This document shows positions 4,786-64,000 of a stretch of DNA of 64,000 nucleotides, piece by piece. The DNA comes from an uncultured virus (IMG/VR IMGVR_UViG_3300002231_004964) (taxonomy: Duplodnaviria > Heunggongvirae > Uroviricota > Caudoviricetes). How positions within the stretch are numbered: position 1 is the first letter of the stretch; each line of letters begins with the position of its first letter. The translations under genes were made by a program, and so were the position numbers. The stretch is from IMG/VR virus record IMGVR_UViG_3300002231_004964; one strand, 5' to 3'. The notes beneath the pieces are model-generated. The model did not search any database. It worked only from the letters and a program-made list of their open reading frames with translations, and was not told the DNA's origin.

Positions 4786-6168
4786 CTAATCGCTTCGACG
4801 AGTAAATCTTTCGATAATTCCCATCCTTTCAATCGAAGCACCAATTCCAATGCCTAATATACCTGCGGCAAGGGCTACCCAAATATCATCCGAATCGGTC
4901 TGATTTAAAATCTTGGAAGGAATATCTTGTTTCATCTTCTCAGGGTTGTATTTCTTGCGCTTATATTGTCGAGTTTCAGTGGTAATCCCTGATTCTTCCT
5001 TGCTGTCGACCACAGTTTCTTCACGTTTATCCTCTGCTATCCTTTCGGCTCCATAGATATATCGCGAGGAAGTCATCTCGTTATACCGCATCGACTCATA
5101 TCTATCGTGAGTGTAACAAGGCATGTAAACAGTTCTACCGTCCATTTCATGCGTGTGAACGTCTTGACAACCGAGTTCTCGGGCTCGAGCCATGGCTTCT
5201 TCTCGGGTGTAATACATGTCTTGTCCTGTCATTTCAGCGTCGAATCGACTTGAGGTTGCTACGTTTTGCATCCAATTTTTTCCTGCTTGCTCCATACGAG
5301 TATCGTGACCAAGCATACCACTAATTCGAGACAGTTCATCGGTCAATTCATCTTCGGTGCCGACTAAAATTCGACCAGTTTGGAATCCGAACTCATCTAC
5401 ATTCCGACCTGGTGCAGTAGAATAATACATAGCACTAGGATTACCATCAACCGTTCCAATAATAAGAACATTATCATGGCCTTCGGCCTCTAATTTCACG
5501 CGCTTAGCCGCTTCTTCAGGTGTAATCGCTTGGTCTTTGACTAATTTACGAGGTGTGTGAGGCTTACCTGTTATAGTTCGAACCTTTTTACGAGTCTTAG
5601 GTTGTTCTTCAACCACTAAATAATCCAAAATATCGCCTTTTTGCTCGGCATCGAGAACCATTTCAGTTCCTTCTTGCCTTACATTTCGATTTCCAGTAGA
5701 GAATGGATAAGTAAACGAGTATTCCCACGCAACAGGATTTAAATAAACAATATACGCCCCTGTGCTTCCAATATCTCCCCAAAATCTAGGATTGTCTGCT
5801 CTCGGTATAGAAATAATTCCTTTATTTAATAAACCTTGCACAGGTCGACTCATAAATGGTTTATAACCTCTATTATCTACTTCTACATAAGCATATTCAT
5901 GATTATTATGGTAATAAGACATCTTCATCATATTCAAAGATTCCAATTGTTTTTTACTCAATCTAGGTTTTGACTCAGCCTCATAAGATTCGGCATAAGA
6001 TGAGTATCTTCCCATAGGTACACATTCATTGCAAACACATTCTACATCGTGTATATCGGGTCCATATCTTTGATTGCGCCATTCGTTCAAGCAAGCCATA
6101 CAATCAGGGTCTGCCTCACCATATTCTCTATCGCAAGTGCATCGATTCTCATTCATCATCGAGTACAT
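4786..6168 (-). CDS. Modular AE-motif protein: Cys-rich N-terminus, DUF3721-like GC..H..MPC..H module, C-terminal TM
   Basis: YAESYEAE, LDAE, LEAE, FDAE, YGAE separate modules; EEAMARARELGCQDVHTHEMDGRTVYMPCYTH; IWVALAAGILGIGIGA. Confidence 0.75.
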   Translation of the reverse strand: MYSMMNENRCTCDREYGEADPDCMACLNEWRNQRYGPDIHDVECVCNECVPMGRYSSYAESYEAESKPRLSKKQLESLNMMKMSYYHNNHEYAYVEVDNRGYKPFMSRPVQGLLNKGIISIPRADNPRFWGDIGSTGAYIVYLNPVAWEYSFTYPFSTGNRNVRQEGTEMVLDAEQKGDILDYLVVEEQPKTRKKVRTITGKPHTPRKLVKDQAITPEEAAKRVKLEAEGHDNVLIIGTVDGNPSAMYYSTAPGRNVDEFGFQTGRILVGTEDELTDELSRISGMLGHDTRMEQAGKNWMQNVATSSRFDAEMTGQDMYYTREEAMARARELGCQDVHTHEMDGRTVYMPCYTHDRYESMRYNEMTSSRYIYGAERIAEDKREETVVDSKEESGITTETRQYKRKKYNPEKMKQDIPSKILNQTDSDDIWVALAAGILGIGIGASIERMGIIERFTRRSD

Positions 6169-6175
6169 CTTTAAT

Positions 6176-8005
6176 TTAGCCTTGTTTTATCGCCGACTTC
6201 AACTCACGCATATCCGTGACACCTGCCTGTTTTAGAGATTGCAAAGAATTTTCTAAGTTTCTAATTGCTTCTTCAACAGCCGCAATAGATTCGGGTGAGT
6301 TTCCACCTTGTTCAATACAATTCAAACCGTATGCATCACATACCTCACAGTAGCCATCACCGTCTAATTGATGATTGCCCCATTCAGCACCATAGGATAC
6401 TTCGGAACCACTCGGAGAATCACTCAACTCGTAGGGTCTCTCTCCTGCAGGGTCGAAAAACGGGCGCGAAGCATCTTCCATAAGGTAAGATTCACCTTGC
6501 TGTGTCTTAAAGGTTTCGCTCTCGAATTCCACGGTGAACGGGGTGGCGTCGGTATACTCCTCCATGGCATCATCATACGTGTTAACGCCTTCGTATAGTT
6601 TTTCTAACGGCATTTCATACCGACCCGTTGCCATGAATTGGAGTTCGATGACGGCTTCGACAGAACCATAGTAACTGTAGTATTCTCTTAGACCGCTTAT
6701 AGCAGCCTCTAAGTCGAATTCGCCATCTGAAACAAATAATTCATCACCCTCTTGTAACTCTCCTTGTCCCGTAGCGAGGGCTTGGTAGCGATTATATTCG
6801 TCCACATACCCGTCGAAATCATCAGCACTGCGACCTGCTATGGCATACTCGTCTTCATATTCGCTAACGAGTCTCGTTTCGGGGAACACGTATTCGAAAA
6901 AAGATTCCAAAGAATTGACAGCAGGTCCATTTCCACCATACCTTCTAATGCTTGTGTAACCTTCATCACCTCCGACCCATAAATAATTTCCTGTTATGGC
7001 ATCTTTAACAGGATAATCATCGCTTCGGCCGTTTCGAGACATGTTTAAGTTACTCACCATTCCCGTTTGATTATAGGCGCGAGTAGGAACTTCCAAAGGA
7101 ATCTCATATTTGGGAAAATCATCTTGTAACGCCGTTAAGAGGTTTAAACTGTTATTATCAACTTCGAGTTGAACTTGACTGGCAATTTCGTAGGCTCGTG
7201 TGGGATTTGTTATCTTGGTTTCAACATAGGCCATGTGATTCGAGTAACGATTAAGTGGAGAATACTCTTCCCATGTGATGTCGGAACTGAAACGAGCCGT
7301 AACTAAGGCGAGCAAAGCCGCACTTAATTCGACCCGCATCACTTCTTTGAGACGTCTAATCTCATCGGAGTTTTCACCTCGTAACGAGTTTCTAACTTGC
7401 ATTTGGTCTCGGAAAAGTTCAATCCTAGCATACATTTCTTGGAGTTTTGGGATTTCGCGCCATAAGTCCGAATCCGAACGTCGTTTCGAGATGACTCGAC
7501 GAAGGACGGTATTATAAGCCGAAGCCAAGCCGTAAAAGTAATTACTTGACCCGCGATTAAAATTTGAAGAGTTCGTGATGAATTCTTCTCGCTTAGATTC
7601 GGGCAAATGTTGAAACCATTCTACTTCATCTAAAAGGTATTGAGGTGAGAAACTTGTAAATGAATTCACCGACCATTCAACAGGCTGACCGTAAACGTCA
7701 GTATCGACGTTTTGTTCTAAAAAAATTGTCTGAATCCGAGCGATGTAGTCGTCGATGTCAGGGTCAGTACCTTGAAATTTCTCGAGCGTCTCGACGAAAA
7801 AATCTCGCAGGGATTCGTATTCTGCTCGGAAAGCCTCGTCTAAGGTAGAGGAGTCGGCGCGTAACTCGGCAATAGCAGGAGAAGTTGCGTTTAAGACGGA
7901 AACGGAAACTGATAAACTAGGTTCCCAATAAACACTCGTTTTAAACGCTTCCGAGAGGAGGGGAAACGGAACGGTTAATGGATAAGTAGCAAAATACGTA
8001 CTCAT
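6176..8005 (-). CDS. Large acidic hypothetical protein with AE motifs and C-terminal CxxC
   Basis: 609-aa ORF; RBS AGGTGA; FESETF, YGAEW. Confidence 0.75.
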   Translation of the reverse strand: MSTYFATYPLTVPFPLLSEAFKTSVYWEPSLSVSVSVLNATSPAIAELRADSSTLDEAFRAEYESLRDFFVETLEKFQGTDPDIDDYIARIQTIFLEQNVDTDVYGQPVEWSVNSFTSFSPQYLLDEVEWFQHLPESKREEFITNSSNFNRGSSNYFYGLASAYNTVLRRVISKRRSDSDLWREIPKLQEMYARIELFRDQMQVRNSLRGENSDEIRRLKEVMRVELSAALLALVTARFSSDITWEEYSPLNRYSNHMAYVETKITNPTRAYEIASQVQLEVDNNSLNLLTALQDDFPKYEIPLEVPTRAYNQTGMVSNLNMSRNGRSDDYPVKDAITGNYLWVGGDEGYTSIRRYGGNGPAVNSLESFFEYVFPETRLVSEYEDEYAIAGRSADDFDGYVDEYNRYQALATGQGELQEGDELFVSDGEFDLEAAISGLREYYSYYGSVEAVIELQFMATGRYEMPLEKLYEGVNTYDDAMEEYTDATPFTVEFESETFKTQQGESYLMEDASRPFFDPAGERPYELSDSPSGSEVSYGAEWGNHQLDGDGYCEVCDAYGLNCIEQGGNSPESIAAVEEAIRNLENSLQSLKQAGVTDMRELKSAIKQG

Positions 8006-8573: not shown

Positions 8574-9168
8574 CTTCTAACATCATTTCTAATTGAGCAA
8601 CGTAGGCGGTAGGACTAGTGTCCATAGCCACTAAAATATCATCGAATAATTCATCCCTCTTGGCATCCACGACAGGTACACCAAAGTAATTAGCCACTTC
8701 AATCAATAATTCGTCGTCAGCCGTTTCTAAAATCGCGACAATAGTTTCTGATTCGAAGGTTTCCGCACGTCGACTCTCGGTCACATGTTGATACCCGTCT
8801 CGTGTTAAATAGTACACGGTTTTTTGCACACGTCCGAAAACTCGGCCGTCATCATCAGTAACGTGAGCCAGTTTTTGTTTAACTAATCCATCACGCATCA
8901 AAGGAGCAACAATTCGATTGACGTTACTTCGATGAACGTCGATAGCAGCCGCTACTCCAAGTTGACTTAGTTGTTGTGGGGCTTCACGAGAATTTTCAAT
9001 CCGTTCGGAATTCCAATTCGATAAGTAGTTAATCAAGGCCTGTTGTTTTTCAGTTAAACTGTGATGTGCCTGTTTAGTAAGGATTCCACAAGCGCCACAC
9101 TGCATTCGGTCTGCACCGTAATTTTCGGCTTGTTTCATTCGTCCAGAACTACAATGATGGCATCTCAT
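8536..9168 (-). CDS. Zn-ribbon plus winged-helix DNA-binding protein
   Basis: CHHC/CGAC; LSQLGVAAAIDVHRSNVNRIVAPLMRDGLV...YYLTRDG; TATA at 9192-9200. Confidence 0.7.
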   Translation of the reverse strand: MRCHHCSSGRMKQAENYGADRMQCGACGILTKQAHHSLTEKQQALINYLSNWNSERIENSREAPQQLSQLGVAAAIDVHRSNVNRIVAPLMRDGLVKQKLAHVTDDDGRVFGRVQKTVYYLTRDGYQHVTESRRAETFESETIVAILETADDELLIEVANYFGVPVVDAKRDELFDDILVAMDTSPTAYVAQLEMMLEDETFAFGDFPSL

Positions 9169-11964: not shown

Positions 11965-12029
11965 ACTATCTAATCACCTACGCAACTACTTAAAGTTTAT
12001 GAAACCTGCTCGGTTTAGGCTTAGGGGGC

Positions 12030-13439: not shown

Positions 13440-13488
13440 ACCTATCATTATTTAGGCTCAACTACTTAAACTTTACGAGAACATCTCA

Positions 13489-14887: not shown

Positions 14888-14923
14888 ACTGTAAGTAGTG
14901 CTCTGATACCTACTTAAAGCGTA

Positions 14924-15730: not shown

Positions 15731-15755
15731 ACCTTTGCATAGCGTGAACCTGTAT

Positions 15756-21231: not shown

Positions 21232-22305
21232 TTACTGACCAATTACACTACCCATACCGATAGCACCTTTCATTTCATTGCTAATAGTTGTACCATTTGC
21301 GTTCTTTGTCATGCGTCGAGGAACGGAGTTACCGCCTCGGCGAGCAGTAGTTGTTGGCGCTTGGTAAGAGTTGAACACGTTTTGAATACCTGCCTTGGTC
21401 TCAGCAGTGTAGTGCGCGTTCTTTTGAATCATAGTTGGAGTGTCCTCAGCGTAGTAGGCTTGAGGTTGGTAAGAAGTAGTCTTAGGCATAACGGATTCTA
21501 CGAAGGCATTCTTTGCATCGCTTCCACGACGTTGTAGTGAGCCAGTTGCTTGGGCGAAACTTTGGTCGTGTTCAACTGCAGTTACGCCACCTTGTCCGTA
21601 GTTAACTGGAAGAACGTCGCCTTCGCCGAAGTTTCCTTCTGCACTAGGGCCTGACGCAACTTCTGCCGCTAGAGTAATATCTTTGCGAGTCATCTCAGGG
21701 TCGATAGTAAACGGACTAGTATCTACTTGATAGTTAGATTGTCCTGCGGAAACGTGTCCGCTTCCAGTTGGAGAACGCTTAGTAACAGTCTCAGACTTAA
21801 GGTCGAAACCCGTTACCTTACCAAGAGTAGAGTTCCAAACAGTTCGAAGACCTTGATATGCTAGACCTGCACCTGCGACAATTCCACTAATCTTCCACAT
21901 ATCGGAAGAACTGGAGTTACCCCATGCGATAAAGAATGTTCCAACAATAGCCGTAAATGCTCCACCGAGGGCTTGAATACCTCCATCGGGCAACATATTA
22001 AGAATACCAACTGCAACATTGTTTACCAATCCTGCGGCTACAACTACACCTGCAATCATTCCATAGAAACTAATGTCGGTGTATGTTCGCCAGTCAGTTG
22101 CAGTTTTTGCAGCCCCGACAAAGTCAGTCGAAACACCAGTTACTTGGTCGATAACACCGTCAACGACATCTGTTGCGTCACCCATTATAGTTTCTGCAGC
22201 ACCACTAAAGTTAGTGTATTGATTATCTTGATGTCCTTCTGCGACAATGTTACTATCTTCCTTAATTTCGGAAACGGCAATTGCCTCGTTTACTGGTCCG
22301 ACCAT
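21232..22305 (-). CDS. Three-TM membrane protein with AE motifs
   Basis: GAAET, LKSET, LAAE, YYAE, YTAET; CTTTATATA near 22328. Confidence 0.75.
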   Translation of the reverse strand: MVGPVNEAIAVSEIKEDSNIVAEGHQDNQYTNFSGAAETIMGDATDVVDGVIDQVTGVSTDFVGAAKTATDWRTYTDISFYGMIAGVVVAAGLVNNVAVGILNMLPDGGIQALGGAFTAIVGTFFIAWGNSSSSDMWKISGIVAGAGLAYQGLRTVWNSTLGKVTGFDLKSETVTKRSPTGSGHVSAGQSNYQVDTSPFTIDPEMTRKDITLAAEVASGPSAEGNFGEGDVLPVNYGQGGVTAVEHDQSFAQATGSLQRRGSDAKNAFVESVMPKTTSYQPQAYYAEDTPTMIQKNAHYTAETKAGIQNVFNSYQAPTTTARRGGNSVPRRMTKNANGTTISNEMKGAIGMGSVIGQ

Positions 22306-22345
22306 ATCTTTCACTCTCTCTCTCGACTATATAAAGATTACCATA

Positions 22346-23131
22346 TCATTGCATACTCATTCCAACAGGTGGAAGCACCCTTTGACCCAACGGATTTCCG
22401 AGTTCATCGACTGTTGGCATGGTTAAAGGTTCAGGAATTACTGTGTCACCGAAGATGGATGCTGTGTTTTTCAAAACACCGACACCTGAGTAAGTTGGAG
22501 ACATAGCCAAGTCAATTGGAGGCTCGGCTAGGGAAAAGTTTCCGAAAGCCATATCCGCACTAGCGTTTAGAACGTTTCCTTCACTTTGAATAAATTCAGT
22601 TGGTTGAGTTTCACGGACTGCATTGTCCATGGAACTTCGACTAGTAAAACAATGGGATACAACTCGTTGCGAGATGAGTTTCTTCTCATCGTAAGAAATG
22701 GTGTCGCTTTGTTCAATTGCGTTAAGGAATCGATTGCGAGCGTTTGGTCCCGAGAATTTCAGTTTAACTCCAGGGTCGGTAGTAGTGTAAGGGATAAAGA
22801 GTAGAAATCGCTTTTCGACGGTTTCAGGCTTGTAAAGTGCCCAACTTGTTGTACTCGGCTCGTAAGCCAATTTATAAGCACCTACTGTAGTATCAAGTAA
22901 AGTGTCGCCACATTCAGGACCTGCATCGACTACATCGGGAACAACAGGACGCGGTTCAGTTGCGCCAACAATGCCGAGTGAAATACCTAATAGGTCTTCC
23001 GTAGTATCAATGTCTCGTGGCAAAGCACGAAGTTCATATTGACGACCTAGATTTTGGCCAACACCGTACATAGCCGACTCCATTGGATTTCGCTTTAAAG
23101 CGTTTTGAATTGCTCCATCTAGTTCCATCAT
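22346..23131 (-). CDS. Hypothetical protein
   Basis: ORF; TATA near 23154. Confidence 0.7.
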   Translation of the reverse strand: MMELDGAIQNALKRNPMESAMYGVGQNLGRQYELRALPRDIDTTEDLLGISLGIVGATEPRPVVPDVVDAGPECGDTLLDTTVGAYKLAYEPSTTSWALYKPETVEKRFLLFIPYTTTDPGVKLKFSGPNARNRFLNAIEQSDTISYDEKKLISQRVVSHCFTSRSSMDNAVRETQPTEFIQSEGNVLNASADMAFGNFSLAEPPIDLAMSPTYSGVGVLKNTASIFGDTVIPEPLTMPTVDELGNPLGQRVLPPVGMSMQ

Positions 23132-23156
23132 ACTATCACTTCCACCTTACCGTTAT

Positions 23157-24155
23157 TTAAAGATATTCATTTTTCGAACTACTTGTCGTGTCGTCCCAAC
23201 CTAAAATCGCTTCAACGATTCCATCGCGTAAATCACTGAATGTATTAATCTTGCCAGCGTAGAAAAAATCGACATAGGCGCGTGAATATTCTTCGAATAA
23301 TACTTCATTAGAACTTAAAAACGTTTCGACACTCTTTAGGTTCGGGACTTGATATTGCGGACCAATGAAACCTAAAAATCTAAATTCCGTTTCATACGGG
23401 AAAGCGTCGAATGATTCCATAGAGTACTCTCCTGCATAAGACCCCATCTCTAACTCTTCATAGACCATCATGAACACACCTAAATCGGCCTCGTTACCTG
23501 TTAAGTAATTAGACGAGGTGAAGACAATGGCAGTAGCAGGGTAATCTGACGGAGATAGGAAATCTAAATCTTGCAACGTTTGAGTTTCAAACGCGTCACG
23601 GTCTAGCCAATATCCATCACTGTACCAGGCTTTTTCGCTTTTAGGAATCTCCAATGGACGGTAATATCGAATCACTTCCGCCGAATCAGCATCCAAACTC
23701 GTCGGTTTATATTGCTTATTTACATACTTTAAAATCTTTTCGGCCAACTCATCAAAATTAGCAACGAAACTGATGAACTTAACATTGGCCTCTCCGTAAA
23801 CGGCATCGATATGATTAAACTCACCTTTTCGAGTCATTTTTCTAACTTCTTTACGGCCTCTAACCGTACCTAAATCGACATATTTGTCAAGCCGCAATCC
23901 CCATACTTCATCTAGATATTCATTTTCCGCATAGGTTACTTCTACACCCATGAGGTTTTTAAGCGTATCTCCATCACGTTCTGCAGGCTCAGGGCCAAGA
24001 TGATACGTAGTAAAAATTAAAAAGAACTTCATTCCTTCTTCGAAATTAACTTGAATATCTTCATCGGGGAATAAGTTTTTTTCATTGACCCAAACTCCAT
24101 CACGATATCCTGATTCATACTCCTTTGGAATAGGTTCTAATTGAGCCGAAGTCAT
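23157..24155 (-). CDS. Hypothetical acidic protein, possible internal duplication
   Basis: PIPKEYESGYRDGVW resembles EIPKSEKAWYSDGYW. Confidence 0.7.
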   Translation of the reverse strand: MTSAQLEPIPKEYESGYRDGVWVNEKNLFPDEDIQVNFEEGMKFFLIFTTYHLGPEPAERDGDTLKNLMGVEVTYAENEYLDEVWGLRLDKYVDLGTVRGRKEVRKMTRKGEFNHIDAVYGEANVKFISFVANFDELAEKILKYVNKQYKPTSLDADSAEVIRYYRPLEIPKSEKAWYSDGYWLDRDAFETQTLQDLDFLSPSDYPATAIVFTSSNYLTGNEADLGVFMMVYEELEMGSYAGEYSMESFDAFPYETEFRFLGFIGPQYQVPNLKSVETFLSSNEVLFEEYSRAYVDFFYAGKINTFSDLRDGIVEAILGWDDTTSSSKNEYL

Positions 24156-24370
24156 GATATCTTCTCCTCTGCACCATAAGCGTAATCATTATTAAATGAA
24201 TCTCTCCACCGACTATCGTCATCATAGTCACGGTCATCACCTTGGGAGTAGTAACCCTCGTCATCATCATAATCTAATTTAATATCATAGAATTTATTTA
24301 TCAAAATACCTTTTAATTTCGTGGCAGATTCTATTGTTCCTAAGTATTCGCCTTCGGCATAAGTTTTCAA
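24152..24370 (-). CDS. Small acidic protein with AE motifs
   Basis: TYAE, YGAE; 4-nt overlaps with neighbours. Confidence 0.55.
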   Translation of the reverse strand: MKTYAEGEYLGTIESATKLKGILINKFYDIKLDYDDDEGYYSQGDDRDYDDDSRWRDSFNNDYAYGAEEKIS

Positions 24371-24681
24371 AAGCCAGGAAAATAACTTCCGAGCGATTCA
24401 AAATCTACAATCTCAATATATCCATTACGAGACGTATCGAAATCTACATAAATACGGATTAAATCAGGACTAAAAACATCGGGATATTGGCGAGTAAGTT
24501 CTTGTAAGTTGTTATTTTGAAAAGTATATTGAACACCTTCCTCGTTCGGAGTTACATAAGTTAAATCGCCAAACCAAAGAATGAAGTTTTCTTGTGTTAT
24601 CCATTGACCCCACTCTTCCGCCCAAAAACTCTTATAATTTCTAGGCATTGCTATTGGCGTTTCATCAACCATTTCATTCAC
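24367..24681 (-). CDS. Hypothetical protein
   Basis: SFWAEE; overlaps neighbours. Confidence 0.6.
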   Translation of the reverse strand: MNEMVDETPIAMPRNYKSFWAEEWGQWITQENFILWFGDLTYVTPNEEGVQYTFQNNNLQELTRQYPDVFSPDLIRIYVDFDTSRNGYIEIVDFESLGSYFPGF

Positions 24682-25326
24682 CTCTTAGCATAAATGTAGG
24701 CCAATAAAGTGGTAACAAGGGCTGAACCTCCAAGTAATAAATATCCACGTCCTGTTGACGAAGTGTCTTCAGATAATAACGAAAAAGATTCTTCGGCTTT
24801 AAATGGTGTAAAGGCATCAATCTCTGCCTTTAAAGACACGGGCGTTGATTCGGCCAACAAATTTCGCACAGTTTCTTCGGCTATTTTGCCCTCGATAATT
24901 CTTTTTACTCCACATAGCCGCGGCTAGAGTTAAATCGTGAGCCGAAGGTGCGGCAAATCCTGCGAGAGACATTTCAGCACTTAAAGTTTTAACTGCATCA
25001 TCCATGCCACCTTGCTCAGATAGCCAGGAAACAAACTCACTTAATTTCATCGTTTGAATTCGATGTGCTTCTTCGGCCGCTAACTCTCCCTTAATGGTTT
25101 CGGCCGCTAAAGGTTCTTGAATTGGAACGTGAAGTGGAGCAACTACAGGAGCAGTAGGTGCAGGGAATTCAACTAGAGAGGCTTCGGTATCGACACTGTC
25201 GACAGGTTCGGCAGGTTCACTCGCAGTCGGAGGTAATTCTACCTCGACTTCGGCCACTTCTTCCACAGGTGCGGTTGTAAATTCCTGCTTCAAAGACGCT
25301 AAACCTTCGGAAAGTTCTAAACCCAT
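24678..25326 (-). CDS. AE-motif protein with C-terminal tail anchor (frameshift near 24905)
   Basis: Joined reading ...KRIIEGKIAEETVRNLLAES...; ends YLLLGGSALVTTLLAYIYAKR. Confidence 0.65.
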
Positions 25327-25343
25327 ACTTAGTTTTACATGGT

Positions 25344-25945
25344 TCAGTTATTTAAAGGCTTTGTCTGTAGCGAAAGAAGTTTTGTGAAATCTTTCGGCGC
25401 ACGGCAAGACCAAGTTCCATCCCGATTTTTCAATTCAGACCAAGCCGTCAAAACGTGACCTTTACGAGAAACCACATAACAAAAGACTAGAGCCTCATTA
25501 GATTCAGTATCTACGACAGTAACATCACGTAGGAAATGTGAATTAGTAGGAGTAGAAGCCGTTGATGTAGATTGGATTCTACCCAAAGTTTTTGTAAATC
25601 TTGTCGGTATAATTTCGGAATTGTAGTCGTAACTTTGGCCGAAACGGCATCTCTTTTAATACCACGTTGATACAAATCCTTTTTATGGTCTGCATTCACT
25701 TCGTGTGGATATCCCATTTGAATACGAGCAGTTGCCGTCAATTTAAGTGGTTTCTTCGGACTCGTCATTTGAATGACTTGTCTTTGAAATGTCGGCAATT
25801 CGTCTTGAATCCAATCAGGCCAATAAACGGCACGATGATAGTAATAAAATGGAACTGCATCAGTTTGAACATCGATGTAAAAATCACCAATTGTGAAACC
25901 ACTCATACTACTTGAGTAGTCAATCACCCATATAAAGGCTTTCAC
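25344..25945 (-). CDS. Hypothetical protein (two overlapping ORFs, probable frameshift near 25590)
   Basis: 25511..25945 and 25344..25586 overlap out of frame. Confidence 0.5.
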
Positions 25946-28378: not shown

Positions 28379-28393
28379 AATCAATCACTTACC

Positions 28394-29296
28394 TTAACGT
28401 CTATATAAAATTATCTCTCCCTTACCCATACCAGGTGCAGACGGAATTCCTCGAATCGAGTCATCACTAATCTTTAGTAAAGTGTAATCTTGAGACCACT
28501 CGACAAGGGTTTTTGTAGCACCGATACCAGTCATACTATCTGTACCGTAGTAGGAACTGTTTTCAGCAGGAGAGATTTGTTGTCCAAGTCGACCATCATA
28601 TGAGAAAGCCGATGAAACGACAGGATTATCGCCACCAAGAGGACTTGGAGGCATCGAAGGAACGTCTTGGAAAGGAACATTCACACCCGATACTTGGAAA
28701 GGAAAGTTGTGCCCTTGCTCGGCAGGTGCTTTACAACAAGGTGTACGACCTGAATAATCGACAGGAATCATTGTACCATCCATCAAGCGGGCTTGTACTG
28801 ACGGGTCATAACTTGTAGGGTCAATGTGATGCATCAGTTTAAGCGGACGCAAATCATAGTTGTTGAATTCTTGACCAGGTGCAAGTGCTTGGAAAGTTTT
28901 TTGTTCGGCGGCTTGCACGTTTAAAGTGTCACCAGGGCGGCCTGTCGCAGGAGCAACTTCCTGAGCCGTTACTTCATTAGTGTCAACTAGGTCGTCACGC
29001 TTGAATCCAAGAATACTTCCTAAGCGACTCCAAACTGATTGTTCTTGAGCAATTTCCTCTTCAACAGGTTCGGCCACAGGTTCGGGTTCATTAGCCTTAT
29101 AAGGATTTGGATTCATAGGCTGAACATCGATAACACCAGGTCCATAAGGCAACGTGTTTACCACTGGTCCGCCGTGAGTAAGGTCTAGGGCTTGATAACC
29201 CATGAAACTTTGACTCAACGAGGTCGGAATGATGTCAGCAGTTGAACCTGTCAACTCGATAAACATGGTTTGGTAGTCTGCGTCAGTTACAACCAT
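28394..29296 (-). CDS. Pro-rich hypothetical protein
   Basis: ORF; TATA at 29319-29327; QAAE. Confidence 0.7.
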   Translation of the reverse strand: MVVTDADYQTMFIELTGSTADIIPTSLSQSFMGYQALDLTHGGPVVNTLPYGPGVIDVQPMNPNPYKANEPEPVAEPVEEEIAQEQSVWSRLGSILGFKRDDLVDTNEVTAQEVAPATGRPGDTLNVQAAEQKTFQALAPGQEFNNYDLRPLKLMHHIDPTSYDPSVQARLMDGTMIPVDYSGRTPCCKAPAEQGHNFPFQVSGVNVPFQDVPSMPPSPLGGDNPVVSSAFSYDGRLGQQISPAENSSYYGTDSMTGIGATKTLVEWSQDYTLLKISDDSIRGIPSAPGMGKGEIILYRR

Positions 29297-29339
29297 ACTA
29301 GAACCTAAGTCTTTCCGCTATTTAAAGATACCGCCCTTT

Positions 29340-29945: not shown

Positions 29946-29976
29946 ATTATTCACTATCCCTTGCTGATATTTAAAG

Positions 29977-42715: not shown

Positions 42716-43936
42716 CTACTTAATTGTTTCCCAATAATCTGCATCTGGAGAAAAGGCACGAGGAAAAACGAAAAGAGAGGTCATATCCACAAATTCACCA
42801 TCTCGATGGATTAAATCTCCAAATAAAATAAAGGTTAAGTAAGAATCATCCTCAAACATGACTTTAGAGACACCACTAAACGCTCCATTTCGATGTGGGC
42901 GTTGCTCTATTCGAGCAATCGGCCGACCATAACCTGGTGCATTCCAATCATCGGCTAATTCTTGTGCGGCGACGAGATTGTTGTATTCTCCCATCATTTT
43001 AACACCTTCGGAAGTTCTAACATGAACTCGGTAAACTGCAGGTTGATAAGGCAAATAATTAGTTAAGATAGTTTCAAACTCATCATGGTCATGGTCATCA
43101 TCGTCGTGGTCATGGTCATGGTCATGGTCATCTTCATTAGGGGCGCCTTCTAAAACCGTCTCAAACGCCTCGAAGATAGTGTGTAATTGCAGTTCAGTTT
43201 GAGTAATGACTTCATCAGGTGTCAAGATATCTAAAGCGACAGGATACGGACCTTCACCAAATCCCTCGATATTTTCTATGAATTCAAAACGGTCAGAACC
43301 GACACGAGAAATGAATTGACGAAGATGACGAGGAGAAAGAATAAATCGAGATTCTAATTCCGTAGTTGCCGAACCTTCGGCCAAGTCCATAAGGAAATCA
43401 TAAGCCTTAGCGGCTTGATAATCCTCTGAATTCCAATCAACATCCTCCCNTTCGAAATCATCACGTCGAACGACGTCACCAGGTGGGTCTGACCAATCGA
43501 CATCATCCCAACTCTCAGCCCCGAAGTCTTGTGGCACTAATCCCATCTTTTGAAGTTCGCGTAACATTATCATTTCCGCCGCATCGGGACTAATTAAACC
43601 CATAGAAATTTCACGGTCTAAGCGCATATCTAATTCCTGCAACTGTGCACGAATCATCATATCATGACGCATCAAGACTTGGTCGACAATTCCTTTCGGT
43701 TTACGACGTTGCACAATGGTGGCTTCAAAGGATTCCGCACTGTAGTATCTTTCTCTCCAATGTACTATCTCTTGACCTGTTTTCGGGTCATGAGCATATT
43801 CACACGTGTTACAGACGAAAAAACGGAAGTCATATGGATTCTCACCAGGCTCCATCTGTCGCTTTTTATAGGCGGACATCCAAGTCCGATTCTTCTTACA
43901 GTTAGGACAATACATTCGTTTGCCTGTTTTAGCCAA
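42716..43936 (-). CDS. Modular AE-motif protein: Zn ribbon, His/Asp tract
   Basis: CPNC/CNTC; YSAESFEA, FGAES; EDDHDHDHDHDDDDHDHDE. Confidence 0.7.
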   Translation of the reverse strand: MAKTGKRMYCPNCKKNRTWMSAYKKRQMEPGENPYDFRFFVCNTCEYAHDPKTGQEIVHWRERYYSAESFEATIVQRRKPKGIVDQVLMRHDMMIRAQLQELDMRLDREISMGLISPDAAEMIMLRELQKMGLVPQDFGAESWDDVDWSDPPGDVVRRDDFEXEDVDWNSEDYQAAKAYDFLMDLAEGSATTELESRFILSPRHLRQFISRVGSDRFEFIENIEGFGEGPYPVALDILTPDEVITQTELQLHTIFEAFETVLEGAPNEDDHDHDHDHDDDDHDHDEFETILTNYLPYQPAVYRVHVRTSEGVKMMGEYNNLVAAQELADDWNAPGYGRPIARIEQRPHRNGAFSGVSKVMFEDDSYLTFILFGDLIHRDGEFVDMTSLFVFPRAFSPDADYWETIK

Positions 43937-48127: not shown

Positions 48128-50710
48128 TTACTCCCCCAAGAATCGATGAATGTTCAACAGACCCTCGGCGAATTTTTGCACATCGGCTACTGTCGGAGCG
48201 CCGTAAAGTTCATATTCCGCATTTTGATTAGACCCATAATCATAAGAAATAATCGAATCTAAATATTTCATATTATCGGCCATCATGCCCTCTCCTGTGT
48301 AGGCTCGTAGAGTTTTACTAGCCGATTCCAACGATTCAGCCGACTTGACTTGTTCTAAAACGGATTCCGCACTAAACACTTCCTCAGATTGGAATTCGTC
48401 GATAAAAGCAGTTGGGAATTGTATTTGTGGTTCGTCACCGAATTGCAAGTTCTTAACTAATTGGAACATCTCTTGATTTACCGTAATGCTTGGCACTAGG
48501 GCTAAACGCAATAAGTTAATAACCTTGGGCGATGGCGATTTCACTTGGCGGAAATACTCGTCTAAAGCGTGACCTTCATATTTGAATAAGTATTGACCCG
48601 CTACATTCACAGCAGTACGAGAAATGGCCTTGTCTTCGGGCAGGGTTTTACGAGAACGCATATCGATAGCACCACCATCACTGTCTTCATAGTATTTTCG
48701 ACTTAAAGCACGGGCTAAATCACTAAAGTCGAACGGACGTCCACAAACAGTACACCCTGTACCAACACCCATTGGTGGTGGAGGGTCAACCGAGACTCCG
48801 TTGGCTTCGAATTCTTCAATAAATTTCGGACTAAATGCAGGAATACGTCGTGTCGGAGGAGATAAGCCGAAATCTTGAATATCCATCACACGAGCACGAA
48901 TAGTACCTTCAGGTACTAATATATCTCGCAAAAACGCTTCAACTTTCTCAGCCACATTGCTTCGTTTTTTACCTTCGACTAAGTATTGCGCCATGTATGC
49001 ATTCAACGCATCGGTATGAAACCCGTTCCACTGATTACCTTCTTCATCTACCCACGGAACAACGACTAACCACCAGTAGGCTAATGTCCGACCAGTTTTT
49101 CGAACGCCATACGGATTCGACTTAGATTTAAGAGTTGAAGTCGCAACACTATCGATTTGTTGTCGAGTTTCTTCAGGTACTAATTCAATGAAATCACGTA
49201 AATCATCTGTAGTATCGATAGCAACTCCTTGAGAAATTGCTAAGTCAGTGTACGCGGCTGTGCGAGCCGACTTTACAGCACTATCGTACGCATTTTTAAC
49301 TTCTTCGAAACGGAAACGATTAGCCACATCAAACGGCCGAGCGCAAATTATACAATCTGATTCCGTCCAATTCTCGGGTTCATCACGCGGTGCTTCGAAA
49401 GTTTCTGCTTCTAAGGCCTTTTTACCACCTGTCATTTGACGATTTAGCGAATTAAGGGTCGTGAGAGGTGCGTCGATATTACCTCGCTTCATTCCCATAT
49501 CTTTCCACCATTGTTCGATGGCTTCAGGTCGATAACCACGAGCCCTCATACCTCTAACAGTGAACAATTCAGGGTCATCCCACCCCGAATAAACCCCATC
49601 TTTGATTCCTTTAGCGTACGCAGAAGACGAGAATGAGATAGGAACTTCGTTTTCATCCAAGACATTAACTCGACCCCAATATTCAACTTCAGGATAGTCC
49701 CATCCAAAGAATTCATATAAAATTTGTTGCTTTCGTGTCGAGGCTTGTAAATCAATACCTCGAATAATGTGAGTAATTTCTAATTCATAGTCATCAATAG
49801 CCGATTGGAAATCTAAAACAGGCCAACAAACATCATCAGGTTTTCTAGGGTGACCTCCCAATTGCATTCTAAATAAAACGAAATCACGCAAAGCAGGGTC
49901 GGGTGCATTAGGGTCGCTACGAATACGTAGGACGGCTTCCCCAGGTTGGAAACGTCCTTCAATCATATCCTCAAACAATGCTCTATTTTCTTCTACGGAA
50001 CGGTCTCGATTTGGATTAGGCAATCCTGCGGCTTTTAATTCTGCCGCTTCTTCACGAGAAAGAGTGTCGACGTAAGCACCACCTAGATTGATTAATTGAT
50101 AAGCCCACTCATAATAGATATCAAGACGGTCACTAGCATAATAGATTTCATCAGGCATATCCCCAGTTAACCATTCGATATCTTCGGGAATCATTTGATA
50201 AGCCGCCAATAGAGGCGGTTTCGTACCCATTCCTGTATCATCAAATCTCAGGATGAAATCACCACCATACTTATCTGCATAGGCTCGATTAATAGTGACA
50301 CCACGACTATGCCCTAGAGTCAAGGGCGCATTAGGATTCGGAGCGAATCGAACACGGAAGTTGCCTGTTTCGGCATTTGGAAGTTCCTTCAAAACTTGCT
50401 CTCGCTTTTCCTTTGGACCCTCCATTTTTCGAATCCTCGCCACGGTTTCCATTCCGACAGGACCTAATCGAGCCAGATACGAAATAGAATCCTCCCGACC
50501 TTCTTCATCGTACATGGTGATAGCCTCAGCCATGGCTGCATTGACGTATTTTGGAAGATACTTACCAAATCGTTGCAGAGTAGGTTGTGAACCCATCATA
50601 CGACCCATAATAGAGCCCATTTGAGGTTTACCATTATACTCGATAGTGTTGCCGAGGGCAAAAGCCATAATAATGTCGGCTTGCTCAGGCGTTGGTGTCC
50701 ACTCATCCAT
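48128..50710 (-). CDS. gltX: Archaeal-type glutamyl-tRNA synthetase catalytic domain fused to two CxxC repeat domains (no anticodon-binding domain)
   Basis: RVRFAPNPNAPLTLGH, LRFDDT, YYASDRL, PALRD, FQSAIDD, THIIRGIDL, GWDDP, RGYRPEAI; TATA at 50733-50741. Confidence 0.9.
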   Translation of the reverse strand: MDEWTPTPEQADIIMAFALGNTIEYNGKPQMGSIMGRMMGSQPTLQRFGKYLPKYVNAAMAEAITMYDEEGREDSISYLARLGPVGMETVARIRKMEGPKEKREQVLKELPNAETGNFRVRFAPNPNAPLTLGHSRGVTINRAYADKYGGDFILRFDDTGMGTKPPLLAAYQMIPEDIEWLTGDMPDEIYYASDRLDIYYEWAYQLINLGGAYVDTLSREEAAELKAAGLPNPNRDRSVEENRALFEDMIEGRFQPGEAVLRIRSDPNAPDPALRDFVLFRMQLGGHPRKPDDVCWPVLDFQSAIDDYELEITHIIRGIDLQASTRKQQILYEFFGWDYPEVEYWGRVNVLDENEVPISFSSSAYAKGIKDGVYSGWDDPELFTVRGMRARGYRPEAIEQWWKDMGMKRGNIDAPLTTLNSLNRQMTGGKKALEAETFEAPRDEPENWTESDCIICARPFDVANRFRFEEVKNAYDSAVKSARTAAYTDLAISQGVAIDTTDDLRDFIELVPEETRQQIDSVATSTLKSKSNPYGVRKTGRTLAYWWLVVVPWVDEEGNQWNGFHTDALNAYMAQYLVEGKKRSNVAEKVEAFLRDILVPEGTIRARVMDIQDFGLSPPTRRIPAFSPKFIEEFEANGVSVDPPPPMGVGTGCTVCGRPFDFSDLARALSRKYYEDSDGGAIDMRSRKTLPEDKAISRTAVNVAGQYLFKYEGHALDEYFRQVKSPSPKVINLLRLALVPSITVNQEMFQLVKNLQFGDEPQIQFPTAFIDEFQSEEVFSAESVLEQVKSAESLESASKTLRAYTGEGMMADNMKYLDSIISYDYGSNQNAEYELYGAPTVADVQKFAEGLLNIHRFLGE

Positions 50711-59744: not shown

Positions 59745-60523
59745 TTACGAGTTTGAATTTCCCGCAATCCATTTCATGGCTACACCGATATCGTTCACCC
59801 GATTACGAACAGTCTCTCTTTAAAGGCATTCCGATTACTTATCGGTATCATCCTGCCGTTCTACGATTGATTAGGGGTGATAACGAACGAGGAGTAAGAC
59901 TACGTCCAAGATATCGAGGCAAGTCGAAACCCGATATCGGGTATAAGCGACGCCAAAGTTATGTAACCGAGGAGTTTGCAGATACCTTTGCATTATACCC
60001 TGTTTCAAATTATCGAGCAGAGACATCTTTAAGTAGTCGAACGGCTGAAACTACTAGTATGAACGAACCTGTCACTTATCCTGTCGGTAATGGAAATGTC
60101 ATCGGTAGCCACTCTGCTCAAGATTTTGTATGGGCAGGACGAGCCGAGGGCGCTCAAGAACAAGCCACTGGCGAAACTGCTACTCACACTCCAATGTCGG
60201 AAGAACCTTACACTGGACCAATCACTGAACCTCTTGGTTCGGATGTTCACTTTGGGGCTGAAGGAAGAAAGATGAGTTGGCCTATGGCCTTTGGTATTGT
60301 CGGAGTTGTCGTTGCTATTACAGGAGTCGTATCATTAATATTCGGAAAATGGATTGAAGACGTTCCTGTAATTGGTAGTGTGGTCAAGGCCGTTCGTTCC
60401 TCTTGGGATGCTAAGAACACACCACAAGCCATTTGGATGTTGTCTACTATTGCATTAGTGGGTTATCTAGGTGCGTATACTTGGGTTAATCAAATGCAAC
60501 TTCGTGCTAGATTAGCAGTTTAA
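59741..60523 (+). CDS. AE-motif protein with two C-terminal TMs
   Basis: YRAET, RTAET, GRAE, FGAE then hydrophobic helices. Confidence 0.7.
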   Translation: MITSLNFPQSISWLHRYRSPDYEQSLFKGIPITYRYHPAVLRLIRGDNERGVRLRPRYRGKSKPDIGYKRRQSYVTEEFADTFALYPVSNYRAETSLSSRTAETTSMNEPVTYPVGNGNVIGSHSAQDFVWAGRAEGAQEQATGETATHTPMSEEPYTGPITEPLGSDVHFGAEGRKMSWPMAFGIVGVVVAITGVVSLIFGKWIEDVPVIGSVVKAVRSSWDAKNTPQAIWMLSTIALVGYLGAYTWVNQMQLRARLAV

Positions 60524-60684: not shown

Positions 60685-62775
60685 TCACTCGTAATCGCGA
60701 ATGGCCACGCCGACAGGGAATCTAGGCACTCCATCGTCCGTCAATTCAAAGAATTTGACCGTTAGCATTTTACCAATGTAATCGGAACCATTTTCGAAAT
60801 ACGCTCGACGAACTTCTCGTGTTCCTTCGGGTCGAACTCGGAATTCTTGACCTGCNTCGGTTTTAACAATCCAAACNACAGTNCCTTGGTCGTTACCACT
60901 GGCTTCATCAAAGCCAATGATTTCATATTCGGCATCTTGGAACGTCTTGAACTTTTGCAAATGCTTAGAACGCTTGTTTAAGTCGTAAGTTCCTTGCAAG
61001 TTGCGAATCATGACGCCTTCGAAATCTTCGTCTCCTGTAAATTGTTGATGCAAAGCACCTAAATCGGCAGGACCTCGGAGAGGGAAATTCTCGGTCAAAA
61101 CAAGATTGCCCATGCGTCGCCCTGTCGCAGACGTACTCGAAGGAAATAAAGCCGCCAATTTCGAGTATCGGTCTAAGAAAGTAGCCTTGGGTTCGTCAAG
61201 TAAAATGGCATCATACAAACGATAATCAATTTGCTTCATTTTATCTTCATCGCTGATAATATGAACGGTTTCCGTCATCGGCTTTCCTGTTTCAGGGTCT
61301 AAGCGACCATCATTAGTCGGTACTTCTTCATCCCTCGCAGGTTTCAAAGTCTCTCTTCGAACCAATCCAGTTGCTTCTTGAAATGTTAACGAGTCCGAGT
61401 AAACTTCTCCATCAAGCACCATATTCGGTTCAATGTTCAAAGCCTTGATTTGGTCACGCAAATGCTCGAGATGAGGGAAATCCTTACCTTTTCGAGTCAT
61501 GAGACGAACGGAGCCATCAGCCTGTGTAATCGCCAAACAACGGACACCATCAAACTTTCTTTGGGCGACGGCAGGATACTGAATATCATGACTTCGCTTT
61601 TCGAAATTGTGAGCCAACATCGGCAAGACGACAAGATTATTCAAGGCTTCTTCCTTCGTTAGGAAATAACCTTCATCTTGCTTCTTTTTGAATTTAGAAT
61701 CGGCTTCGAGTTCTGCTTGTTCAAGAGCCGTTCGATTAACCTTTCCTTCGGTAATCAACTTGCCACGACCTTGCGTGATAGCACCATCAACCTTTCCACT
61801 AGCCGTAGTGAGGAGATATCCTCCTTCTTCTTGCGGCAACAGCAAAACTTGCCATTGTTGTAGTGTTCCTGTTGCGGTTTTCTTGTAAATTACGGGGTAT
61901 TGCTTCACTTGCTTCACTTCCTCTGCTTGGAACGTAGTCGTTACTTGGTTATAACGGTTTCGCAAACATGTGCGTGTTTCTGTTAATAATTGTTCTAATT
62001 CGATAGTCGTCAAACCATACGAAGAATCCCGCTCCCAGGAAGATTCAATGTCATCGTAGATGCGAGAACGTAAGAAAGAATCTTCAGGGCTATCAAGGCG
62101 ACAAGCATCTAATTGCAAAGAATTGCTTTTCGCCCATAATTCACCCTGTAATTCACCCCGAGGTTCTACCCAATAAACATCACAATCGAAAATATACATC
62201 AAATATATATCATACTTTTTAACGAAACCGAAATTCTCAACTCGTAAATCAGATACGATGACAGGCAACCGCGTCATAACATCACGCCGAAATGGTTGAA
62301 AAATAGGGTCAAGATTAGTTTCAGGTCGTTCCCATAAAACCGCATCCCATTCCGTAGGTAAGGCAGGGATTTGATAAACTAAGTAATTCCAACGTCGTAT
62401 ATCAGTAGACGTCGAATTTAGTAATTCATCAAGGCGATTCATCGGTCGAATTGTGGCCATGTCGAAATGACCGCTCATTCGGTTTAGACCCATGAAAAAT
62501 TCTTCATCATCAATCGCTCCTGTTTCCAAACGAGTTATCGGAATAAAATTTTGTAACGGGACACTGCGCTGTTGAAATTTAAACGCTTCTTCTAAAAATA
62601 ACGCCGTGGCTAAATTTCGACAATCCGAAAGCGTAAAATCACCAGTTTCATGAGCAGGCCAACAAAGTAATTTTAGATAATATTTATCATCCTCGAAAAA
62701 GGTAGTGATTTGAGTACTCCCTGTAGTATTGACGACATATTTAACATCATTTGTAAACAACTTATCGAGCAACAT
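60685..62775 (-). CDS. lig: ATP-dependent DNA ligase with unknown N-terminal extension of about 280 aa
   Basis: KFDGVR, LDGEVY, YRLYD, EGVMIR, LQKFK, PRFPV; WGR-like domain precedes the ligase core. Confidence 0.9.
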   Translation of the reverse strand: MLLDKLFTNDVKYVVNTTGSTQITTFFEDDKYYLKLLCWPAHETGDFTLSDCRNLATALFLEEAFKFQQRSVPLQNFIPITRLETGAIDDEEFFMGLNRMSGHFDMATIRPMNRLDELLNSTSTDIRRWNYLVYQIPALPTEWDAVLWERPETNLDPIFQPFRRDVMTRLPVIVSDLRVENFGFVKKYDIYLMYIFDCDVYWVEPRGELQGELWAKSNSLQLDACRLDSPEDSFLRSRIYDDIESSWERDSSYGLTTIELEQLLTETRTCLRNRYNQVTTTFQAEEVKQVKQYPVIYKKTATGTLQQWQVLLLPQEEGGYLLTTASGKVDGAITQGRGKLITEGKVNRTALEQAELEADSKFKKKQDEGYFLTKEEALNNLVVLPMLAHNFEKRSHDIQYPAVAQRKFDGVRCLAITQADGSVRLMTRKGKDFPHLEHLRDQIKALNIEPNMVLDGEVYSDSLTFQEATGLVRRETLKPARDEEVPTNDGRLDPETGKPMTETVHIISDEDKMKQIDYRLYDAILLDEPKATFLDRYSKLAALFPSSTSATGRRMGNLVLTENFPLRGPADLGALHQQFTGDEDFEGVMIRNLQGTYDLNKRSKHLQKFKTFQDAEYEIIGFDEASGNDQXTXVWIVKTXAGQEFRVRPEGTREVRRAYFENGSDYIGKMLTVKFFELTDDGVPRFPVGVAIRDYE

Positions 62776-62800
62776 ACTTTAACACACCTTTGACAACTAT

Positions 62801-64000
62801 TTAAATTCTTTCATGAGGAAACCAAATCCCAACGCCGCCTGCTTCGCGCCATTCAGCGATTGTACCCGCGTGGTCATCGAGTAAAACGTCACCTGGTTGA
62901 CAGTAATCAACCTTTTGCTGTCGAGGTACGACAATTACTTCAACATCAAGGCCTAAACGGTCTCGCACCCAAGCCCGTTTATCTTCTATCGAATAATCAT
63001 TCGTACCTCCAATAGGAGCGGATAAGAATGAAAATGGACGTCCACTAGCAATGATTTCGTCTAAAACGTCACGATTTATAACTTCTAAATTGTAAAAGAA
63101 ATCGGGCTCGGAGGCGATTTTATACAACATACGGTCGATAACTTTCTTTTTAATAGGGTCATGAGATAATGATAAATCAAAATCCCGTTCAGTAACAGAT
63201 GTAATTCCTAATTCCTTAGCCTTCCTCGCCGCCCGACGCAAACTTTTCGAGGAAATTTCGGATACATCTTGAACATGCAACACATCATTAACTCGTTGAG
63301 TGATAGCCCCTGCGAAATCCGCAAAACATCCATCCATATCTAAGTAAAGGTGAGGTTCGTCTACGGTTTCGGCGATGTAAGTCGTTGGCTTCATGATGAT
63401 TTCGAATTCAGGTTTCTCTAAGAAAAACAAACAAGAAATTAAGGTAGCAAACCAATCGATGTCTTCGACAGGAACGTCTTTTTCAATGAGGTAATCTTTT
63501 TGAGAACGCGCCCCATCCCATTCATATGTCCAAGTGTAAATTTCGGGATGAAGTGACCAATGTGAACCGTAAGTAAATTGATATTTATTCCGAGAAAGCG
63601 TTCGACCAGGAACGGCATCATTACGGACAGATATCCAACGATAGGCTTTTAAACTGAAATCATTAAATTGACTCGTGATAATTTCATTCAATTGTTTGCT
63701 TCCATAGGTAGTCGAAGTTAGTCTAGAATTCATCCATTGAATCCAACGTAAAACCGCGTAATAGAAGAAATAATTTATCGTGCCATTAGTTTGGAAATCT
63801 TCAATAATTCTCGAAACGACAACGAGTTCTTCATCATAATCATCAAAAAATTCATCAAAATCATTAATATATTCCTCAATGAGTATTTCATCTAAACTAC
63901 CTCCTATAAAATTAGGCTCGGTAATTTTAAAAGCGACGGCGCTAAGAGTGTGATAGACCTCAATTGCCTTTTGAAATTCAGTAGTAGATACCTCTCTAAA
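62801..64000 (-). CDS. 5'-partial fusion: ART-like domain plus HAD 5'(3')-deoxyribonucleotidase
   Basis: Frame open from the window end; LYLDMDGCFADF, LSAP, K..W, LLDD; upstream AYR..HWS..EFE. Confidence 0.8.
   Translation of the reverse strand, partial: FREVSTTEFQKAIEVYHTLSAVAFKITEPNFIGGSLDEILIEEYINDFDEFFDDYDEELVVVSRIIEDFQTNGTINYFFYYAVLRWIQWMNSRLTSTTYGSKQLNEIITSQFNDFSLKAYRWISVRNDAVPGRTLSRNKYQFTYGSHWSLHPEIYTWTYEWDGARSQKDYLIEKDVPVEDIDWFATLISCLFFLEKPEFEIIMKPTTYIAETVDEPHLYLDMDGCFADFAGAITQRVNDVLHVQDVSEISSKSLRRAARKAKELGITSVTERDFDLSLSHDPIKKKVIDRMLYKIASEPDFFYNLEVINRDVLDEIIASGRPFSFLSAPIGGTNDYSIEDKRAWVRDRLGLDVEVIVVPRQQKVDYCQPGDVLLDDHAGTIAEWREAGGVGIWFPHERI

Follow-up and report, generated by a model that had tools for sequence, protein, structure and literature searches.

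What is the function of a short peptide motif, (F/Y/K/L/R)-x-A-E-(T/S), that recurs through the proteins of an uncultured virus known from IMG/VR record IMGVR_UViG_3300002231_004964? The stretch analyzed (the window) is 64 kb long, with 42-45% G+C and 13 N, and yielded a greedy, non-overlapping set of 90 open reading frames (ORFs; 20,122 amino acids), almost all on the minus strand. A preliminary description had taken the motif for a protease cleavage code in modular virion polyproteins. The pattern [FYKLR]xAE[TS] is found 23 times where 3.6 are expected (z 10.3), a count reached in none of 1000 whole-protein shuffles. Its Ala-Glu core (AE) is present 173 times against 105.1 in whole-protein shuffles (z 7.1) and 111.7 when residues are shuffled in 15-residue blocks (z 6.5), where it is the most over-represented dipeptide. 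The excess includes AE[TS] (38 against 14.0 in whole-protein shuffles), and with block shuffling AET (25 against 8.0) and ETF (14 against 4.0) are among the top tripeptides. The motif stands well above a composition-matched background, the first check proposed for it.

The reverse dipeptide, EA, is not in excess (119 against 105.5, a count reached by 79 of 1000 shuffles), and neither are SE, GE, AD or AQ in the window proteins. To compare with other genomes, the same ORF pipeline was applied to seven control regions: the phiKZ head genes, T4, a huge uncultured phage, Alteromonas phage AD45-P1, Ruegeria phage RpAliso, and the haloviruses HCTV-1 and HVTV-1. The observed-to-expected ratio for AE is 1.63 in the window and 0.86-1.18 in the controls. 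The phiKZ head genes stay within the control range despite their known Glu-ending cleavage motif.

Within the window the excess is uneven. By gene cluster, taken on one strand, the AE ratio is 2.63 at 21232-29954 and 1.94 at 29955-36152 but 0.95 at 1-4785 and 0.76 at 13100-21231. AE is not in excess inside Pfam envelopes (12 against 11.5, ratio 1.04) and is so outside them (161 against 95.3, 1.69). These data support a real motif, selected at the amino-acid level, that avoids known catalytic domains, although some AE sites do fall in predicted helices or a catalytic domain. As the preliminary description had noted, AE is sparse in SufB (2 against 1.9), the two GT2 glycosyltransferases (0 and 1) and the AAA ATPase (1 against 1.7). 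Its count of more than 20 unrelated carriers was too high for the strict motif, which is in 18 ORFs; AE[TS] is in 20 ORFs and AE in 55 of the 90. Its list of carriers also needs correction: ORF 8014-8208 contains no AE, no ORF in the set begins at 60533, and two others, ORFs 6176 and 9535, show no enrichment of their own (3 against 4.7 and 11 against 9.3).

The signal belongs to the peptide. In the reading frame GCNGAR is counted 173 times, compared with 19 and 14 in the two remaining sense frames. The AE[TS][FY] sites of the window and its relatives draw on all four Ala codons and on several for Thr, Ser and Phe. With codon choice at the mark this free, selection is on the peptide and little DNA identity is left for recombination. 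A DNA-level motif is ruled out, the signal being frame-specific and its codons variable. Among the codon pairs that encode AE, GCC-GAA is used more often than codon usage predicts (60 against 36).

Ala is needed, since [^A]E[TS] shows no excess (168 against 176), while the following Ser/Thr is preferred but dispensable (AE[^TS], 135 against 95.8). AE[TS][FYLIVM] is found 20 times against 4.4, and AE without any Phe after it is still enriched. A logo was built from 456 distinct sites in 73 further proteins that share a 40-residue module with the window. Numbered as for a putative cut after Glu, it reads S/T at P5; F (6.4-fold), Y (3.1-fold) or M (2.9-fold) at P4; G at P3; A at P2; E at P1; S (4.65-fold) or T (4.2-fold) at P1'; F (10-fold) at P2'; E/G at P3'; A (5.3-fold) at P4'; and E/Q at P5'. 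The extended consensus, (S/T)-F-x-A-E-(S/T)-F-x-A-(E), is periodic over five residues, and the repeat unit is therefore (S/T)-F-x-A-E. Tandem marks number 67 in the 73 proteins and four in the window, where 0.1 are expected. Regions around the motif are poor in order-promoting residues (0.276 against 0.331).

Where the marks lie was followed in relatives of the window proteins (Table 1). For ORF 42716-43936, 36 relatives were found and 24 aligned. In most of the 24, YY(S/G)AE(S/N/T)FEA follows the zinc ribbon, with A67, E68 and F70 nearly invariant. In four of them a cassette of 130-190 residues interrupts the sequence precisely at YYSAE-SFEA and has the mark on both flanks, and three distant relatives have the zinc ribbon and mark in common and diverge thereafter. 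The same minus-strand ORF contains an alternating His/Asp run at residues ~268-285 that is conserved, with variable length, in the relatives.

The modular protein at 25942-28384 has 17 AE sites, including tandem pentads near residues 212-222, and two basic repeats of 62 residues, each ending in MMAE. Relatives of ORF 26939-28384 number 67, of which 25 matches were aligned. Most AE columns are invariant or almost so, among them those of the triple tandem mark (26 sequences), the number of basic-repeat units varies, and the family holds 382 AE against 116 expected. The interval between FAE and (A/S)E-FGVVG is filled by either an EF-hand-like or a zinc-ribbon cassette. The 40-residue module, with an EF-hand-like DRxKDGxIS loop, lies at approximately 26470-26610 (residues 121-165 of ORF 25942-26973). 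It is present at varied positions in at least 70 other metagenome proteins; all 29 proteins inspected, out of 80 matches, contain it, nearly always bracketed by AE. A Pfam family is lacking in 66 of 67 tested proteins that carry it. In the 73 further proteins that share the module, AE is found 519 times against 220.5, with EA at 245.

A third case is the membrane module that follows H(F/Y)GAE in relatives of ORF 59741-60523, which exists in two interchanged versions. One module is N-terminal at a related locus, L019, and is preceded by AETFASE at another, L010. This is the one clean case of split genes starting at marks; the other matches are start-codon or frameshift differences. In relatives, AE is found in variable linkers and on either side of cassettes that were inserted or swapped, and one gene fusion is joined at it.

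Further junctions lie in enzymes with recognizable families. ORF 48128-50710 (minus strand) encodes an archaeal-type GluRS core, residues 11-426 of which match PRK04156 in Pfam/NCBIfam scans. The match ends at profile position 405 of 567. An anticodon-binding part is absent, and lineage-specific modules with CxxC pairs stand in its place. The AE at 49403-49408 lies nine residues beyond the end of the match, and the core mark AETFE(A/S) is kept in 80% of 15 orthologues, where flanking identity is 24%. In relatives with extra modules, at the core junction and near residue 780, AE is found on both sides of each. At residue 113, some relatives have VE instead. At L010 an NT5C-like domain is fused directly to the DNA ligase at the very AE that opens ligase homology in the window, where the two are separate genes. 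The positions first given for the GluRS end (49403-49408), ligase start (61921-61926), NT5C-like junction (63368-63373) and repeat ends (27239-27244, 27053-27058) were confirmed. The "ART-like" domain proposed for residues 1-120 of ORF 62801-63733 has no family match in Pfam, PHROGs or NCBIfam.

Searching metagenome contigs for the GluRS fusion recovered 18 syntenic loci of 47-93% identity. Their 53,598 residues show the same bias, with 398 AE against 247 (1.61), 278 EA, and 93 AE[TS] against 30. Over 22 orthologue families, 42 of 411 AE (10.2%) lie within six residues of the edge of a large indel, compared with 2.6% of all residues and 0.9-4.2% for seven control dipeptides.

The behavior at junctions, cassettes and the fusion matches what is expected for processing sites between modules. 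The best reading, which we rate at about an even chance, is that the AE mark is a cleavage code for a Glu-specific protease. AE would be the constant part of a short linear motif that punctuates proteins between independently folding modules, and a putative Glu-specific endopeptidase would cut after Glu, at sites with an aromatic residue or Lys at P4, Ala at P2, Glu at P1, Ser/Thr at P1' and Phe at P2'. Modular precursors would thereby yield separate enzymes, membrane-anchored pieces and small basic units, and tandem marks would release pentapeptide spacers. With uniform punctuation, cassettes could be inserted, deleted and swapped with processing retained, because the same mark stands at every junction. 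The data show the enrichment, the amino-acid-level selection, the placement at junctions and the cassette behavior; cleavage at the mark, the choice of scissile bond and an enzyme encoded by the element are inferences. Of the code first proposed, the motif, its selection as peptide and its place between modules hold, but no protease family is found in the 90 ORFs with NCBIfam. The word "virion" is unfounded here, since no capsid, portal or large terminase is recognized among the window ORFs with Pfam, PHROGs or NCBIfam.

Short Glu-ending motifs have a precedent in phage head maturation; that of T4 gp21 is [LI]-x-E. In two published accounts, the prohead proteases of T4, phiKZ, 201phi2-1 and SPN3US cut after Glu in short motifs, often at multiple sites per substrate, and motifs such as A-x-E and S-x-E place the determinant at P3 (PMC5694885, PMC10052503). 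T4 gp21, phiKZ gp175 (MEROPS S80) and SPN3US gp245 resemble the present case in having a short Glu-ending motif in many proteins of one virus. They differ in that their determinant is P3 and their cuts mostly remove N-terminal propeptides, whereas here Ala is at P2, Ser/Thr-Phe follows Glu and the marks are internal. The P3-type rules are not enriched in the window ([LI].E, 212 against 196.8, z 1.2; [SAG].E, 273 against 297.9, z -1.9; A.E, 106 against 110.6, z -0.5), the enriched form being x-A-E. T4 and phiKZ, offered earlier as the precedent, do not serve as a model of the motif; an enzyme acting here would have to recognize Ala at P2 instead of a residue at P3. Assemblin-fold families (Peptidase_S77/S78/S80 types) have no match among the 90 ORFs in NCBIfam.

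Other systems share single features. African swine fever virus pS273R cuts GG-X and poxvirus I7 cuts AG-X, both being clan CE cysteine proteases. As is proposed for the element here, precursors of these DNA viruses bear a short, repeated, dipeptide-based mark and are cut into several products. Their marks are Gly-Gly or Ala-Gly, however, and in the window AG[AST] (28 against 24.7) and GG. (113 against 139.7) are not enriched; C5, C57 and C63 families have no match in its ORFs in Pfam or NCBIfam. Sobemovirus-type Glu-specific chymotrypsin-like proteases of RNA viruses cut at E-T/E-S between functional units, and so share Glu at P1 and Thr/Ser at P1' with the reading proposed here. They act on one polyprotein, whereas the marks here are found in dozens of separate genes across a large DNA element; among the window ORFs no protease of the S1 fold was detected. 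In multi-core precursors of ribosomally synthesized and post-translationally modified peptides (RiPPs), such as the cyanobactins, recognition sequences flank each cassette. Variable cassettes are likewise bracketed by conserved short sequences that allow exchange, but the cyanobactin cassettes are short peptides, while those here are whole domains of 40-200 residues within enzymes and membrane proteins, and no RiPP enzymes were seen in the window.

Several results weigh against cleavage. None of the 90 window ORFs matches a peptidase family in NCBIfam, in line with the preliminary description, and a peptidase match is also absent in Pfam (40 + 50 + 7 queries) and PHROGs (58 ORFs). AE is not enriched near N-termini (16 in the first 25 residues against 19.3 under uniform placement), so that a terminal propeptide pattern of the T4/phiKZ kind is not seen; it is depleted in the last eight residues (5 against 15.6), and none of 288 ORFs ends in AE. 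A cruder test of indel edges found AE enriched two- to threefold in two families but not in the third (counts of 9 and 12 of 31 in family A4, 7 and 4 of 26 in A1, and 2 and 1 of 13 in A3). Positional conservation of AE is moderate, ranking eighth among frequent dipeptides for excess conservation, and conserved islands are found at four of 14 AE sites in variable regions, with an overall rate of 0.11; in the conservation tests, orthologues of at least 97% identity or below 60% coverage and families of fewer than three members were dropped. The relatives are kin to each other, and AE counts among them are not independent events. In the GluRS fusion the AE at residues 223 and 848 fall within predicted helices or the catalytic domain; such sites are probably structural. 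The AlphaFold model of the fusion (mean pLDDT 51) is too poor to place its marks in linkers.

Among other explanations, the one that survives best, though we consider it unlikely, is an uncut docking or linker motif that binds an assembly factor, the element's own PAN/CDC48-like or Get3-like ATPase, or a host protein, with tandems raising avidity. The mark is acidic-aromatic, often tandem and set in regions low in order-promoting residues, as is typical of linear binding motifs, and the element does encode a PAN-like AAA ATPase and a Get3/ArsA ATPase. A binding motif, however, need not flank cassettes on both sides or occupy fusion joints, and the enrichment of AE lacking a downstream Phe also speaks against docking. 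E-T-F-E-A-x-E resembles the FFAT consensus EFFDAxE, in which the aromatic residue at position 2 is key. That defining feature fails: at the 456 sites the residue after Glu is Ser (4.65-fold) or Thr (4.2-fold) and Phe comes one later, so that FFAT identity is rejected.

Somewhat less probable still is a standard connector kept as a joint for cassette exchange, with recombination between marks and no proteolysis. Inserted cassettes have the mark duplicated on each side, as a joint or a target duplication would, modules swap exactly at the mark, and the 40-residue module is spread over many proteins. Against this, the freely varying codons leave little DNA identity and point to selection on the peptide. 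Exchange would explain the spread of the mark but not the retention of A-E-(S/T)-F, and it is compatible with cleavage.

We regard as improbable that the mark has no specific function and that the excess reflects a habit of structure or composition in this proteome, for instance helical proteins rich in Ala and Glu with AE at their helix starts. In favor are the helix-forming tendency of both residues, the AE that lie in predicted helices, an EAEAEAE run in one ORF and the turnover of many single sites between relatives. Yet EA is unenriched under equal local composition, the flanks follow a position-specific logo with Phe 10-fold at the second residue after Glu, and the indel-edge association is specific to AE. 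Composition or helix bias as the main cause is rejected on the EA control, the local shuffles and the seven control genomes. Least probable of all, by a small margin, is a modification sequon in which Ser/Thr after Glu is glycosylated by the GT2 enzymes or phosphorylated: two GT2 genes lie in the window, AE[TS][FYLIVM] is in excess (20 against 4.4) and E-(S/T)-hydrophobic is like the Bacteroidota O-glycosylation motif D-(S/T)-(A/I/L/V/M/T), but the Ser/Thr obligatory in that sequon, which is thereby rejected, is missing from 135 of 173 AE that are still enriched (135 against 95.8), [DE][TS][AILVMT] (148 against 133.2, z 1.4) and E[TS] without Ala are unenriched, and conserved marks include GAEG, RAEW and FAEG. 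Because the P3-type, GG/AG, FFAT and glycosylation features all fail, we assign the mark to no named protease system; on comparison it appears to be a Glu-ending processing motif that follows those of the phage prohead proteases in outline.

Table 1. Positions of AE marks and other features in the window.
Feature	Position	Strand	Context
AE-excess span	4786..63400	-	173 AE in 90 ORFs, counted over the whole window; sub-spans 1-4785 and 13100-21231 without excess
Cluster of strongest signal	21232..29954	-	AE 45 against 17.1 expected, EA 14; dark proteins, many with disordered and membrane segments
YYSAESFEA mark after N-terminal zinc ribbon	43721..43744	-	ORF 42716-43936
DFGAES mark	43514..43519	-	Residue 140 of ORF 42716-43936
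Modular precursor-like protein	25942..28384	-	ORFs 26939-28384 and 25942-26973; one protein of ~700-800 residues in relatives
Triple tandem YAE-TLAAE-TFHSE	27719..27757	-	ORF 26939-28384
HFGAE mark just ahead of membrane module	60257..60262	+	ORF 59741-60523
AETFEA mark after GluRS catalytic core	49391..49414	-	Residue 435 of ORF 48128-50710
Two AES marks at start of C-terminal domain of GluRS fusion	48323..48376	-	Residues 781 and 791; extra AE-bounded cassettes of relatives lie directly upstream
AE at GluRS residue 113	50369..50374	-	Five residues ahead of Pfam catalytic-domain start
AE at start of ligase homology	61921..61926	-	Residue 284 of ORF 60685-62775
AE of YIAET	63368..63373	-	Three residues before NT5C/HAD homology in ORF 62801-63733
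Tandem YAESYEAES after Cys-rich N-terminus	5977..6000	-	ORF 4786-6168
RRAETFESE tandem mark	8749..8772	-	ORF 8536-9168
TAETFEA between membrane segments and Cys-rich tail	34158..34181	-	ORF 34029-34436
YTTAARTA boxes (examples)	11987-11994, 23154-23161, 35306-35313, 50733-50740, 62798-62805	-	
ORFs that look tail-anchored	4786-6168, 13077-13448, 20946-21242, 25942-26973, 35322-35705, 35739-36152, 51459-52076		

Other families recognized in the window are SufB, Fpg, a Hjc-like nuclease, an ATP-dependent DNA ligase, an NT5C-like nucleotidase, the two GT2 glycosyltransferases, a SAP-domain protein, a PAN/CDC48-like AAA ATPase, a Get3/ArsA ATPase and a split HerA/FtsK-type ATPase. The last, at 36180-36949, is the sole packaging-like match in the PHROGs, Pfam and NCBIfam scans. 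No PHROG match was found for 48 of the 58 ORFs searched, and most of the remaining proteome is dark. No tRNA was detected in the window, and a megablast of 20000-44000 against phage records gave no close DNA match. A conserved protein of 433 residues has no fold match; its AlphaFold model is poor (pLDDT 62) and Foldseek returned nothing at E <= 0.001. A need for cleavage to free the N-terminal Pro of Fpg was ruled out, as relatives begin MPEGPEV and the window has GTG there. The TSP3-repeat protein at 53788-55536 (minus strand) contains long QGQ/GQG repeats, which lie behind an excess of the dipeptides GQ and QG.

For the AAA ATPase at 13489-14887 (minus strand) the nearest models are the archaeal proteasome-activating nucleotidase and CDC48, and a separate ORF encodes its lid domain. 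The ATPase might serve as unfoldase to a protease acting at AE marks. A Get3/TRC40/ArsA-family ATPase is encoded at 41178-42334 (minus strand). A hydrophobic segment is present in 25 of the 90 ORFs, seven ORFs look tail-anchored (Table 1), and by its gene content the element may carry its own tail-anchor insertion factor in the Get3-like ATPase. The window has two ORFs for each of four genes where relatives have one: the Get3-like gene (41178-42334), the HerA-like gene (36180-36949), a gene for a 220-residue protein (43937-44595) and that for the modular protein of 700-800 residues (25942-28384). Either assembly errors or real frameshifts split them; the window also has its 13 N.

Relatives of ORFs 42716-43936 and 26939-28384 were found on contigs of up to 192 kb, and the homologues P0028, P0032, P0039 and P0066 are on contigs of 170-192 kb. 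No relative was found in a viral contig collection searched with three proteins and two alignments, in prokaryote species genomes searched with A2 and P0037, among PDB sequences searched with three proteins, or in the ESM Atlas. The lineage seems to escape current virus detection. The literature on Get3 in viruses and on Glu-specific maturation proteases yielded nothing on it. One related locus (L015:3749-7830) matches the window to about 3776 and then has two long ORFs (959 and 398 residues) that neither the window nor the other loci share; this divergent end could be a chimeric contig, an insertion or the end of the genome.

A TATA-like box, YTTAARTA, occurs 36 times in the window against 15 expected, 31 of them on the coding strand, and 16 of these 31 lie exactly 30 nt upstream of an ATG. 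Judged by sequence alone, a box at this fixed distance is laid out as in archaeal promoters that give leaderless transcripts. An archaeal host is suggested by this geometry together with the archaeal-type GluRS and the PAN-, HerA-, Hjc- and Get3-like genes. In some genes a Shine-Dalgarno-like GGTGA stands between box and ATG, which leaves room for a reading as bacterial phage late promoters. An archaeal host would make the element an unusually large archaeal virus-like one.

Taken together, one tentative proposal is that a large marine archaeal virus-like element, lacking a recognizable capsid or protease gene in the window, writes much of its proteome as AE-punctuated precursors cut by a protease of a novel family, with domains moving as cassettes. 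If true, this would be a proteome-wide cut-and-shuffle system of a kind not described for any DNA virus. Were the marks cut, the processing code would reach beyond head proteins to a tRNA synthetase core, a DNA ligase, a nucleotidase, membrane-anchored proteins and small basic repeats. The lineage is common in marine metagenomes and otherwise almost entirely dark. For such proteins the mark would predict mature boundaries, useful for structure prediction and expression, and would supply a specific peptide signature to seek in ocean metaproteomes. It may also offer a simple account of domain shuffling in these genomes.

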